Positions 4,726-20,480 of a stretch of 64,000 bases of DNA are shown here, one piece after another. The first letter of the stretch is position 1; each line of letters begins with the position of its first letter. The DNA comes from a virus: IMG/VR virus record IMGVR_UViG_3300009181_007093; one strand, 5' to 3'. The notes below the pieces were generated by a model. It did no database searches, was not told the origin of the DNA, and saw only the letters and a list, made by a program, of their open reading frames with translations. The position numbers were made by a program, and so were the translations under genes.

Positions 4726-5217
4726 ATGGCATTAGAACAATGGGAAATTAATTTAAGAAAACAATTAGAAAACGTACAATCCGTAAAAAAAGAAATTAAA
4801 GCAATTCAAGAAATTAAAGCAATTAATTTAACGAATGATTTTACATTTTATATTTCTATGTTCGTTTTTTTAATTTTATCATTTATTTTCTTTTTAGATA
4901 TTAAAACAGACATTTTTAGATTTATTAGCATTAAAGAAAACAACAATAATCAAATATATTTGGATCAATCCCAAAGCAAGCCACCAGAGCCATACTCATC
5001 AGATGAATTGGAAAAAATAAAAGAAAGAATAAAGCGACAAGAAGAAAAAACTTTTTTATTAGGTCTAATTACCAATGAAAACACTTTTATTTTAAAGCAG
5101 GGAAAAAGTAAGAAGCAAATGCTCAATTTAAATAAAAACTGGACATTAAATCAGCGTCCAATATATCTTGAATTAACAGATAAAGACATTGAATATCTTG
5201 AGTCATTAAACAATTAA
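4726..5217 (+). CDS. Hypothetical single-pass membrane protein
   Basis: GAGG RBS; hydrophobic segment FYISMFVFLILSFIFFL; TATATA motif upstream. Confidence 0.7.
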   Translation: MALEQWEINLRKQLENVQSVKKEIKAIQEIKAINLTNDFTFYISMFVFLILSFIFFLDIKTDIFRFISIKENNNNQIYLDQSQSKPPEPYSSDELEKIKERIKRQEEKTFLLGLITNENTFILKQGKSKKQMLNLNKNWTLNQRPIYLELTDKDIEYLESLNN

Positions 5218-8029: not shown

Positions 8030-8983
8030 TTATTTCGTATCATCGGAATTATTTCTTGTCATAATATCAGAGGCAGCAGAAATTTTTCTCTTTGTCCTCT
8101 CTACATCACTATCTCCAACAGCAAACTTTACATGACTTGGATATGCAATCGGCTTAATCACAGCAAATACGGCTGAAAGCTGTTCTGCTGTCTCACAGTA
8201 CGATGCTACCCTCGCATAAAAATCTGTTTTTACAACAACACCAGGATCCGTTTTTACGACCGTTGCTTTCTCTTGTGGAGTAAGTGCCTCTACATGCGTT
8301 GTTCCATCCCACATCAAGAGAGCAGATAGCTTTGCACCGGCGGTTTTTTCTTCTATGCTAGATTCGAACCATTCACGACCAGCACCATAATGACCATCAA
8401 GCAACTCAGATAAACTTCTGATTCCTGTAACAGGGTTGAAATCAAGTTCATTGTTTACTAGATCAGAAGCATTCGATTGAGAAAGCCCTAACGATACAAA
8501 AAGCCCCTTAAAAAAATCAACAGGGTCAGCGTTCTCTGGCATCTTTTTAAATTCAACTTTGAACTTGTCTTGGAAAATGAATATGAACTGATGATCCACT
8601 TTACCATCGCTGTCATTGATAACGATTTGTGGATTTGATGGTCTAGATTTGTTCTCAAAAATTTTATCAATCATCTGACCTTCTGCATATTCAGAAAGTT
8701 GAGCCTTTGTATTTTCAAGACGGGATAGAACAGAATCATAAACAGTCTTAGCTTCAACCCAGTTTTTAGCAACCGTAGTCATTTCTGGGCTTAGTACCAT
8801 TTCCCAGCGATCCTGCTTGCCTTTTGGTTGTGGCGTTACCTGTAGACCATGCTGTTGCAATGTCTTGTTTAAGTTCGCCATGACATCGGAAGAACGAGGA
8901 AGCGAACTCATACCACGAACAATCTGTACTGCCTTTTTTACAACATCGTCTGATTTAACAGTGATCTTTTTAGACTTAGACAT
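8030..8983 (-). CDS. Hypothetical protein (likely start MSKSKK at 8983)
   Basis: Long ORF with typical composition; upstream ATG at 9052 lies in AT-rich promoter-like sequence. Confidence 0.75.
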   Translation of the reverse strand: MSKSKKITVKSDDVVKKAVQIVRGMSSLPRSSDVMANLNKTLQQHGLQVTPQPKGKQDRWEMVLSPEMTTVAKNWVEAKTVYDSVLSRLENTKAQLSEYAEGQMIDKIFENKSRPSNPQIVINDSDGKVDHQFIFIFQDKFKVEFKKMPENADPVDFFKGLFVSLGLSQSNASDLVNNELDFNPVTGIRSLSELLDGHYGAGREWFESSIEEKTAGAKLSALLMWDGTTHVEALTPQEKATVVKTDPGVVVKTDFYARVASYCETAEQLSAVFAVIKPIAYPSHVKFAVGDSDVERTKRKISAASDIMTRNNSDDTK

Positions 8984-18423: not shown

Positions 18424-18642
18424 TTAAGTTACCGAAGGCGGAATTTGAACAGGCAACTCTTCAACCACTCCAGTTGCTTTTGAAATTACAATGGAGCCAT
18501 CCTCAACTTCAATGTTTAGCTCATCTCCTTCTTTCCATCCATTACGTTCTAGTATTTGTGAAGGAATTTTCAGAATGACGTTATCCGGATCTCCAGCAAT
18601 GTCTTCAAAAATTTCTTCTGCTAAAAATTTTAGTTTTTCCAT
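18424..18642 (-). CDS. AbrB/MazE/SpoVT-type DNA-binding protein
   Basis: ILKIPSQILERNGWKEGDELNIEVEDGSIVI signature. Confidence 0.8.
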   Translation of the reverse strand: MEKLKFLAEEIFEDIAGDPDNVILKIPSQILERNGWKEGDELNIEVEDGSIVISKATGVVEELPVQIPPSVT

Positions 18643-18671
18643 AATTATACCAATACATTGGCAAGAAAAAA

Positions 18672-18720
18672 TACCCCTAGTCGGACTTGAACCGACAAGC
18701 CCTTGCAGGCAACGGATTTT
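18672..18720 (-). pseudogene. 3' exon of a disrupted intron-containing tRNA-Leu(UAA)
   Basis: AAAATCCGT-TGCCTGCAAGGGCTT-GTCGG-TTCAAGT-CCGAC-TAGGGGT-A: anticodon 3' side, long variable arm, T-arm and acceptor strand. Confidence 0.88.
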
Positions 18721-18916
18721 CTTACCACTATAGTTTTCACTACCATTTCTGTTTGTGGTCTGGACTTTACCTTAACCATAACTTTATGTTTTAGGTTCCT
18801 GCCGTCAAGTCTCTACACCTTCATATTTCTATGCTTGGCTCGGTATTAGCAGTTAAGCCTTCACCGAATTTGACAGGTTCTATTTTAAAGATTTCTCCTT
18901 AAACACTCAAATAAAT
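18721..18916 (-). ncRNA. Group I intron (196 nt) at the tRNA-Leu UAA anticodon position (U|AA)
   Basis: P/Q/R/S-like cores AAATTCGGTGAA, AATACCGAGCC, GTGTAGAGACT, AAGGTAAAGTCC; terminal G; P1 pairing GACTT exon with GAGT IGS, U.G at the splice site. Confidence 0.85.
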
Positions 18917-18921
18917 AAGTC

Positions 18922-19103
18922 TCATTAGCGTCATAATATCCAACATCATAACCTTGTTCATGCCCCATAGCATAAGCTGGCATCAATCCCCTTGATTATA
19001 TCGTCTTTTTTGCCTTTTGCAACACAGTTTATTATGTCGCTTATTGCTTTTTCGTTTCTAACGCTATATCCTTCAATTTCATTCTCCAGTGATCAAAAAT
19101 CAT
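18922..19103 (-). pseudogene. Frameshifted, truncated small phage gene
   Basis: Three frames join into MIFDHW/ENEIEGYSVRNEKAISDIINCVAKGKKDDIIK/LMPAYAMGHEQGYDVGYYDANE; ATG overlaps the HNH stop. Confidence 0.55.
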
Positions 19104-19570
19104 AGCATTTCTTTTCTGTGATGTTTCATGTGACAATTAGCACAAAGTAGTTCGCATTTTTTTATTTCTGATAAGATCATTGACCATGCACAATTCCAAT
19201 TTTGACACAAATTAAATTTTTTTGTCTTTTCGTTTTTGTGATGAAAAGTTAATACTTCATTATCTTTAACACCACATTTAGAGCATTTTGCTCCACAATA
19301 TTTTATTGCTTTGTTTCTATTATTCTTTCTACTTTTCCAATTTCTACAAGTAGAACAAACACTATTTTTTGTCCAGTTGAACTCTTTGCCACATTCTGTG
19401 CATTCTTTTTTGCTATTTTTATCTCTTGGTGGCATATGTAATCTTTTTGTGTTTCTATTACCAAATGGTGAACATTTTAAACAATACGTTCTTGAAGTTA
19501 ATTGTTTTTGTTTACCATTTACTATAGCATAAGCAGGGAATGACTGATTGCAATTCAAACATATTTTCAT
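19100..19570 (-). CDS. Zinc-finger HNH endonuclease (free-standing homing type)
   Basis: Several CxxC pairs; LTFHHK...EIKKCELLCANCHMKHH. Confidence 0.88.
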   Translation of the reverse strand: MKICLNCNQSFPAYAIVNGKQKQLTSRTYCLKCSPFGNRNTKRLHMPPRDKNSKKECTECGKEFNWTKNSVCSTCRNWKSRKNNRNKAIKYCGAKCSKCGVKDNEVLTFHHKNEKTKKFNLCQNWNCAWSMILSEIKKCELLCANCHMKHHRKEML

Positions 19571-19648
19571 TTTTAATCCTTTATTGAAGGGAGTAGTGAC
19601 CTAATAGGTATACACCAAAAATAAAGAATATCATGTCTGCTTTTTAAG

Positions 19649-19723
19649 TAGCCCGGATCGGATTCGAACCGATACTTGCGACATTTTAAGTGTCGTGCCT
19701 GCTGCCAATTGGGCTACCGGGCC
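19649..19723 (-). tRNA. tRNA-Leu(UAA), intronless, short variable loop
   Basis: GGCCCGG/CCGGGCT acceptor; CGACA-CTTAAAA-TGTCG anticodon arm; ATCGG-TTCGAAT-CCGAT T-arm; no encoded CCA. Confidence 0.9.
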
Positions 19724-19747
19724 ATTTACTTCCAAGCTACACATCAT

Positions 19748-19768
19748 TGCCAATTTCACCATAGGGGC
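19748..19768 (-). pseudogene. 5' fragment of the disrupted tRNA-Leu(UAA)
   Basis: GCCCCTA-TG-GTGAAATTGGCA; GCCCCTA pairs with TAGGGGT at 18673-18679. Confidence 0.8.
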
Positions 19769-19889
19769 ACAATAGCAGCGAATACAAGACAATTAAAAGA
19801 TATTACGAGCAATTCCCTTGCGTTTCGCCACTTCGCGGTATTCTGATTCTACCAGAATTTATTTAAAAATCAAACACAAAAACTCTATT

Positions 19890-20480
19890 CTACGACTTTC
19901 TAATTTTTAGATGTATCCAACACGATTCTGACACTGTAAAAGGTTGAACAAGAGGGGATTCGTTCACTGCTTTTTCTACATCAGGAGCATAAAAATCATA
20001 ATCATGTCCAGCTAAATATCCTCCTATTTTAACTTTAGGGAACCATGCTTCAATATCTTCTTTAACCCTTTCGCATTCATGAGCGGCATCAATAAATACA
20101 AAGTCCAAAGATTCATTTTTATATGTTTTGCTAGCGTCCACAGATGACATTCTAACGGCACTATAGTAGTCTTCTAATGGTTTCATGTTGTTTATAAAAG
20201 TACTATACAACAAATCATTGCCAAGATTCTTCATGGTTTCTATATGCTCCGTACTTCCGAGCCAGGTGTCTATGCAATCAAATTTAATTCCTTTATTGCT
20301 GTTTGCGATTATAACACCCATATAAGCCGAAGATTTCCCCTTCCACGAACCGACTTCAACGAAATGAGATCCACTAGGATGCTCATGAACCATTTTTGAA
20401 TATAGATTTGGATATGTAAACCAATTTTCTCCAAAACTATCTTGTTGATAAATATGTTCCAACTTACTGTTTCCTGTCAA
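19890..20480 (-). CDS. Class I SAM-dependent methyltransferase (Methyltransf_24-like); start may be TTG at 20462
   Basis: VEVGSWKGKS, IDTW, FVFIDAAH, GGYLAGHDY. Confidence 0.88.
   Translation of the reverse strand: MTGNSKLEHIYQQDSFGENWFTYPNLYSKMVHEHPSGSHFVEVGSWKGKSSAYMGVIIANSNKGIKFDCIDTWLGSTEHIETMKNLGNDLLYSTFINNMKPLEDYYSAVRMSSVDASKTYKNESLDFVFIDAAHECERVKEDIEAWFPKVKIGGYLAGHDYDFYAPDVEKAVNESPLVQPFTVSESCWIHLKIRKS

Follow-up and report, generated by a model that had tools for sequence, protein, structure and literature searches.

An intron-bearing tRNA-Leu(UAA) gene of an uncultured phage interrupted by tRNA-locus DNA of a related phage family that carries an HNH gene and a second tRNA(UAA)

The broken locus and its parts

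The window, i.e. the whole 64,000-nt stretch of DNA that was analysed (IMG/VR virus record IMGVR_UViG_3300009181_007093), appears to belong to a large uncultured phage with a GC content of about 0.33 and without a close cultured relative. On the minus strand, the locus described here is flanked by a Methyltransf_24 gene (20480–19890) and a MazE/AbrB-like gene (18642–18424), with an epimerase gene next. Read along the minus strand, the order is nt 1–22 of a tRNA-Leu(UAA), an 826-nt insert, the sequence GACTT, a 196-nt group I intron and a 49-nt 3′ exon. Loci used for comparison are designated by L numbers. The features are:

19747–19768, minus strand: 5′ fragment (nt 1–22) of a class II tRNA-Leu(UAA), its last A common to the insert; identical to the start of the L086 5′ exon
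19724–19747, minus strand: insert, left end: 24-nt tail of the donor-family leader (alignment to L076, L196–L199 and L205)
19649–19723, minus strand: intact intronless tRNA(UAA) with a 5-nt variable loop, class I shape and A73 (ARAGORN, Rfam)
19571–19648, minus strand: tRNA–HNH spacer with a GGTGTA motif and a hairpin (comparison with L205, folding)
19100–19570, minus strand: HNH-A, an intact free-standing HNH endonuclease gene, 156 aa (phrog_2255, alignment of relatives)
18922–19103, minus strand: pseudogene X′, the first 61 codons of X, with which the insert ends on the right (aligned to nine intact X genes)
18917–18921, minus strand: GACTT, the last 5 nt (30–34) of the old 5′ exon (comparison with ACACAACGGACTT directly before the intron in L086 and L114)
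18721–18916, minus strand: group I intron without an open reading frame, 196 nt, inserted between U34 and A35 (Rfam RF00028, 50.6 bits)
18672–18720, minus strand: 3′ exon (nt 35–73) of the class II tRNA-Leu(UAA), 49 nt (48 of 49 nt as in L059 and L086)

The 5′ fragment, GCCCCTATGGTGAAATTGGCAA (19768–19747), is exactly the first 22 nt of an unbroken tRNA-Leu(UAA) in the IMG/VR locus L086. An earlier note, made from the sequence alone, had recognized this fragment and given its length as 21 nt; the L086 match extends it to 22 nt, the 22nd being common to the insert. The 5′ exon of L086 is GCCCCTATGGTGAAATTGGCAAACACAACGGACTT, of which the window lacks ACACAACG, i.e. 8–9 nt of the old tRNA, close to the loss of about 9 nt estimated before. 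GACTT, the intron and the 3′ exon of the window show a 92%–94% match to L059, L100 and L086, and these three loci represent the unbroken form of the intron-bearing tRNA-Leu in the window. The 3′ exon has a single changed base relative to L059 and L086, with a G.U pair in the variable arm kept, and its TAGGGGT pairs with GCCCCTA of the 5′ fragment.

When ACACAACG (8 nt) is restored and the intron is spliced out in silico, ARAGORN finds an 86-nt tRNA-Leu(taa) with a long variable arm, A73 and a cloverleaf; the broken gene as it stands, spliced without this fill, yields no ARAGORN tRNA. An Rfam scan of positions 18600–19900 (E-value up to 10, truncated tRNAs included) detected neither tRNA piece, and the pieces were identified by alignment to the unbroken alleles. 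Because the 22-nt match is exact, in the right orientation and 1 kb upstream of its own 3′ exon, a chance match is excluded. The fragment and the 3′ exon belong to one tRNA, as had been proposed: unbroken L086 matches both. The gene that took up the insert is the class II intron-bearing tRNA-Leu, and it is now dead. A functional split tRNA, or a second intron, was considered and ruled out, since 8–9 nt have been lost and ARAGORN recognizes no tRNA fold once the pieces are joined.

The sole intact tRNA in the window is at 19723–19649 (minus strand) and has the anticodon UAA (Rfam tRNA score 57.7 bits). ARAGORN and Rfam thus confirm the intronless tRNA of the earlier note; its assignment to leucine is a prediction from sequence. 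The inserted tRNA is not of the class II tRNA-Leu type, its variable loop being 5 nt long; A73 and the UAA anticodon are present, and it was filed as “tRNA(UAA), class I shape”. UUA is the commonest leucine codon in the open reading frames of the window (35% of leucine codons; UUA and UUG together make up 55%), and a tRNA(UAA) is therefore plausibly needed by the phage. tRNAs with a UAA anticodon, A73 and a 5-nt variable loop are common in these phages (window 19723–19649; L076, L044, L108, L210 and others), and sequences in Synechococcus phage S-SKS1 and Cronobacter phage S13 that match the short-armed tRNA(UAA) at 85%–86% bear the annotation tRNA-Leu.

The 196-nt group I intron that had been read after GACTT is supported by the alignment to L059, L100 and L086 and by a match to Rfam Intron_gpI (RF00028) at 18927–18739, with a score of 50.6 bits against a gathering threshold of 50. 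Intact relatives score 53–71 bits and L059 below 50, so that the score of the window lies within the range of intact alleles; none of the 55 consensus pairs is broken and there is no decay. The splice sites, ACTT/A...GAGT and ...GTAAG/AAAATCC, show U at position −1 (a U.G pair in P1) and a terminal G. More than 120 IMG/VR contigs with the intron core were found in a scan of IMG/VR. Thirty-five IMG/VR introns are 84%–97% identical to that of the window, and 33 of these interrupt tRNA(UAA) genes from which in-silico splicing yields a complete tRNA, either short-armed (74–76 nt) or long-armed (83–86 nt). The intron boundaries in the window agree with those of the 33 relatives. As to the other two, one is at a contig end and incomplete, and one (L037) has mismatched exons. 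Exon pairing in the anticodon stem, of which the window retains two of five pairs, is needed by the Anabaena intron according to the title of Zaug et al. 1993, as cited in PMC3984707.

L037 (IMG/VR 3300045125_000172, oriented copy at about 4760–5040) has the intron closest to that of the window (96.9% identical). In its tRNA the 5′ exon (GCGCCCATGGTGACC...) is class-II-like and the 3′ exon (...CACTGCTCCTA) is of class-I type, and the acceptor strands pair at only four of seven positions. ARAGORN found no other tRNA in the 12.8-kb L037 locus. Judging from its exons, L037 is apparently a second dead tRNA, formed by recombination through the shared intron.

Source of the insert and the HNH-A gene family

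The insert (19747–18922, minus strand, 826 nt) consists of a 24-nt leader tail, the short-armed intronless tRNA(UAA), the HNH gene and 61 codons of X. It aligns in one piece to L199 2834–3649, and the homology ends sharply on both sides. A search with the HNH protein revealed the donor arrangement: leader, short-armed tRNA(UAA), spacer of about 75 nt, HNH gene, and X starting from an ATGA overlap. This arrangement occurs with an intron in L196 and L197 and without one in L198 and L199. The closest donor type is L205, which has an intact X, an HNH protein 85% identical and a tRNA 97% identical to those of the window; by eye, the spacers also match closely. The tRNA is likewise 97% identical to that of L199, from which it differs by a compensatory G2-C71/C2-G71 change.

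The left end of the insert starts sharply at 19747; its counterpart in L076, L196–L199 and L205 is ATGATATGTAGCTTGGAAGTA, which stands just before the tRNA; only the 3′ arm of the leader hairpin (19747–19724) is kept. In the donor family X is an intact, conserved gene of 73–76 aa downstream of the tRNA or of the HNH gene. Alignment of X′ with nine intact X genes displays −1 and +1 frameshifts and an end in codon 61, and the frameshifted gene remnant noticed before is thus real. The start of X′ overlaps the HNH stop (ATGA), as in L196–L199, and the homology stops sharply at 18922. X′ carries these two frameshifts, and the neighbouring intron is without decay. The insert starts inside the leader hairpin and ends in codon 61 of X, and therefore both ends are illegitimate joints. 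The HNH gene is near the middle of the slice, with 177 nt to its left and 178 nt to its right. These alignments identify the insert as 826 nt taken arbitrarily from the corresponding tRNA locus in a related phage family, and not as an element with ends of its own.

The earlier note had proposed that a free-standing endonuclease cassette invaded the tRNA gene and supplied a replacement tRNA. An HNH gene and a tRNA of the same anticodon are indeed in the insert; a roaming cassette with defined ends is not what the comparison reveals, and the tRNA is rather adjoining DNA that came along with the nuclease gene, the way it does in ordinary homing. Between the window and the donor family there is only distant similarity, with one clear case, a phosphoesterase gene 14 kb away (about 45% protein identity). 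New here are the broken allele, the source of its insert and the finding that HNH-A is linked to tRNA(UAA) genes across its family.

The leader before the tRNA is a conserved sequence of about 110 nt (L199 2745–2857; also L076, L196, L198 and L205), closed by a long stem, CTTCCAACTACAT...ATGTAGCTTGGAAG; it matches no Rfam family. Two donor-family phage contigs carry a tmRNA (Rfam RF00023), at 8312–8668 in L044 (115 bits) and at 8054–8406 in L114 (89 bits).

The HNH gene proposed before at 19570–19100 is borne out. The open reading frame (156 aa) matches phrog_2255, “HNH endonuclease” (E-value = 3.5e-28), and three further HNH PHROGs; it matches no Pfam family, the Pfam HNH models included. A full-length alignment of HNH-A relatives shows three invariant CxxC pairs and FHH...CANCHxxHH. 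HNH-A is 30%–37% identical to genes annotated as HNH in Bacillus phages, and its homologues form 42 clusters.

All ten distinct family members that were read (the window, L196/197, L198, L199, L205, L206–209, L210–215, L216, L217 and L218/219) lie within about 110 nt of a tRNA(UAA) gene. The tRNA is upstream and on the same strand in nine of the ten; in L217 the two genes overlap at the 3′ end of the HNH gene. The linked tRNAs(UAA) are of class I or class II, with or without an intron, and are found in at least five gene neighbourhoods, among them the family locus, one with a ribosomal-L12-like neighbour that has its own promoter, and a tRNA-Lys/tRNA-Leu pair. A tRNA(UAA)+HNH unit thus does recur at other loci, as the earlier note had asked, and the uninterrupted intron-bearing allele exists in other phage contigs (L059, L086).

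HNH-A is outside any intron or intein, and its presence in the interval between tRNA and X is sporadic (present in L196–L199 and L205; absent from L076, L114, L019 and L084). In L086, L092 and others an unrelated HNH gene on the opposite strand occupies its place. This second HNH, of 153 aa (...ELHHKDGDNSNN...LLCPNCH), is located between tRNA and X in L086, L037, L108, L092, L095, L012 and others. Two HNH families, in either orientation, are thus accommodated in this interval.

Members of the HNH-A family adjoin tRNA(UAA) genes in ten of ten cases, and the break is inside a tRNA(UAA) gene; together these suggest site-specific cleavage by HNH-A, whose family would be one of free-standing homing endonucleases that target tRNA-Leu(UAA) loci. 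What emerges is an HNH family bound to a single tRNA species. HNH-A adjoins intron-bearing tRNAs in L196 and L216 and intronless ones in L198, L199 and L205–L215, and the conflict between two selfish elements that had been suggested is not supported; for the same reason the insertion site of the intron is probably not the target of HNH-A. The intronless tRNA of L198 is identical in its exons to the intron-bearing tRNA of L196. A sequence comparison of HNH-linked and unlinked tRNAs showed no consistent difference at the break region.

Two further observations concern the DNA around the HNH gene. A hairpin at 19648–19555 of the window (MFE −17.6 kcal/mol, z −1.9) has the HNH Shine-Dalgarno sequence AAAGGA paired and contains GGTGTA, a motif that precedes the HNH gene also in L196, L199, L205, L206, L210 and L216. 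At 19165–19085, DNA identity to L196–L199 is 90%–100% over the final ~50 nt of the HNH gene and the beginning of X; the proteins are otherwise 58%–66% identical. The region may be part of a common conversion tract, or the HNH/X junction may hold a functional element.

Junctions, strains and the origin of the break

Both junctions are found again in a 50-kb contig of JGI 3300027754 (100% identical), in Logan SRR5818192 (100%), and in ENA ERZ27299986 (98.9%, with 23 substitutions over 2,076 nt and no gaps). The right junction recurs in Ga0194055 (99.3%), together with the same variant positions as in the divergent strain, and a JGI 3300010885 contig has the same gene order. Since the junctions recur in assemblies of a strain that is 1.1% divergent, the structure predates the split of two strains. 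In L201 the element differs from the window less than its flanks do (4 differences in 1,097 nt versus 19 in 979 nt, p = 6e-4); in L204 the lower divergence is not significant (p = 0.3). L201 (ENA ERZ27299986) also displays, at 1499–2681, two tandem Methyltransf_24 genes (187 and 190 aa; about 90% DNA identity) where the window has one, and nine positions differ in the 121-nt spacer that precedes the broken tRNA.

A search of viral and metagenome contigs for a sister phage that keeps the uninterrupted allele among the same genes was negative. The exact pattern of flank plus 5′ fragment gave no match in viral or metagenome contigs, and the pattern of junction 1 none in viral contigs. Methyltransferase relatives are at most 58% identical, and they gave no match to the tRNA locus. 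Epimerase relatives were not found in viral contigs; metagenome contigs gave only the same phage, and the next protein match is 62% identical.

The sequence AATGA occurs at 19748–19744 and at 18926–18922, at both junctions as the earlier note had it. A target-site duplication was ruled out, since the unbroken tRNA lacks this sequence at the break point. On the right, AATGA belongs to the reading frame of X (GCT AAT GAA); on the left, it is made up of the A of the tRNA and ATGA of the leader.

The preferred reading, with a probability of about 0.6, is that the HNH enzyme cut the resident tRNA gene and that the repair copied the tRNA locus of a related phage without homology. The resident intron-bearing tRNA-Leu gene would have lain between the methyltransferase and MazE/AbrB-like genes. 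During a mixed infection the HNH enzyme itself would break this tRNA-Leu(UAA) gene, and 826 nt from the corresponding tRNA locus of the co-infecting relative would be copied into the gap: the leader tail, the short-armed tRNA(UAA), the HNH gene and the first 61 codons of the gene behind it. Recipient and donor having no common flanking homology, this would be an illegitimate repair and not a clean homing, with 8–9 nt lost. The imported tRNA would read UUA and take over from the old one, which would make the damage tolerable, and the intron would be stranded in the 3′ untranslated part of the HNH/X′ transcript. This proposal builds on what the sequences show: the anatomy of the locus, where the insert came from, that both partners exist in unbroken versions, and that two strains have inherited the structure. 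Cleavage by the HNH enzyme is suggested by the strict tRNA(UAA) linkage, the central position of the HNH gene in the slice, and the precedent of SegB (PMC2330249).

The same anatomy and donor could also have been produced with no endonuclease, by chance illegitimate recombination or template switching during replication, and retained by virtue of the replacement tRNA. The joints are without homology and no cleavage site can be deduced from the sequences, and phage genomes are mosaic, e.g. the hybrid tRNA of L037, which was joined through the same intron; all of this would suit such an accident. It would, however, require that a slice bearing a tRNA(UAA) land by chance in a tRNA(UAA) gene of about 85 nt, which is very unlikely, and for this reason targeting is favoured. 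The almost central HNH gene and the invariable linkage of its family to tRNA(UAA) genes across contexts point the same way, and an origin by chance is considered rather unlikely. A history of several steps is a much weaker candidate and is judged very improbable. Here the cassette would have been placed between two copies of the class II tRNA, or by one copy that was later duplicated, and deletions would then have trimmed it. A 2026 paper describes SegB as driving tandem amplification of tRNA-endonuclease segments with microhomology joints (PMC13096335), and L201 has its methyltransferase gene duplicated just upstream; at least three events are needed, however, where one suffices, and the window has no second copy of the class II tRNA segment, of the 5′ arm of the leader or of the 3′ end of X.

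The objection that the locus is an assembly chimera of co-occurring related phages is prompted by the many related intron-bearing tRNA loci that co-occur in metagenomes. It fails, because both junctions recur identically in three other assemblies from different samples and pipelines, one of them a variant with 23 substitutions, and the right junction in a fourth. Microhomology amounts to 1 nt at the left junction and none at the right, leaving no repeat across which an assembler could jump; a chimera is scarcely credible.

The composite could, beyond being a mere scar, have been kept by selection, although this is improbable. In one version, a possible counter-defence, a short-armed tRNA would be favoured for evading a host nuclease that cuts tRNA-Leu, e.g. 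in the variable arm; endonuclease-driven replacement of a tRNA allele would then be a route of counter-defence. In the other version the halves of the dead tRNA (acceptor stem and T arm) and the intact ribozyme might act as processing signals that delimit the ends of the HNH transcript.

If the preferred reading, cleavage followed by illegitimate repair, is correct, the loss of 8–9 nt predicts that the enzyme cuts within nt 20–32 of tRNA-Leu(UAA) genes. The locus would then be a natural trapped product of endonuclease-associated gene transfer between phages without common flanking homology, and a rare fossil of the way in which DNA-cutting selfish enzymes spread together with adjoining tRNA genes. 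A nuclease gene could in this manner bring a tRNA gene into a new genome and render its own damage harmless.

Comparison with known systems

SegB of phage T4 is a free-standing endonuclease in a tRNA cluster that recognizes a tRNA T-psi-C motif and carries neighbouring tRNA genes with it (PMC2330249). The window resembles this system in having a free-standing nuclease gene among tRNA genes whose spread co-converts the adjoining tRNA genes, and the SegB recognition site is within a tRNA gene, comparable to the break described here. SegB, however, is a GIY-YIG enzyme and the enzyme of the window is an HNH. Homing of SegB is a clean homologous repair between syntenic regions, whereas in the window both joints are illegitimate and the resident tRNA is destroyed. 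The incoming tRNA of the window also differs in architecture by its short variable loop, and cleavage by the HNH enzyme is a prediction from sequence.

The review PMC3984707, which summarises work on intron/endonuclease pairs (such as Bonocora and Shub 2009), puts forward illegitimate recombination as their next evolutionary step. Unlike such pairs, HNH-A also adjoins intronless tRNAs (L198, L199, L205–L215), and the inserted DNA of the window is in an exon and not in the intron, so that the intron is stranded and not mobilised.

Insertion of a free-standing endonuclease gene within a gene is shared with Aeromonas phage Aeh1, in which nrdA is reportedly split by mobE and still functions as two polypeptides. 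The split tRNA of the window, in contrast, is dead, and its function would be supplied by the co-transferred paralogue.

The insertion between U34 and A35 is at the trnL-UAA intron site of cyanobacteria and plastids. The intron of the window is like those introns in its site (CUU/AAAA), its small size, the lack of an open reading frame, the U.G pair at the 5′ splice site and the terminal G. It differs from them in its occurrence in phage genomes, where long-armed as well as short-armed tRNA(UAA) genes carry this type of intron, and in that the 5′ exon left in the window has only 5 nt. According to a 2014 review, every phage group I intron then known was in a protein gene (PMC3984707), and the literature searched contains no later report of a group I intron in a phage tRNA gene. 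The introns described here are the opposite of what the review states.

Such an intron is also found in a 735-kb uncultured huge phage (L001, accession LR756501). At positions 1471–1770, a tRNA gene that ARAGORN misses because of the position of the intron is an unbroken intron-bearing class II tRNA-Leu(UAA), and its intron is 79.5% identical to that of the window.
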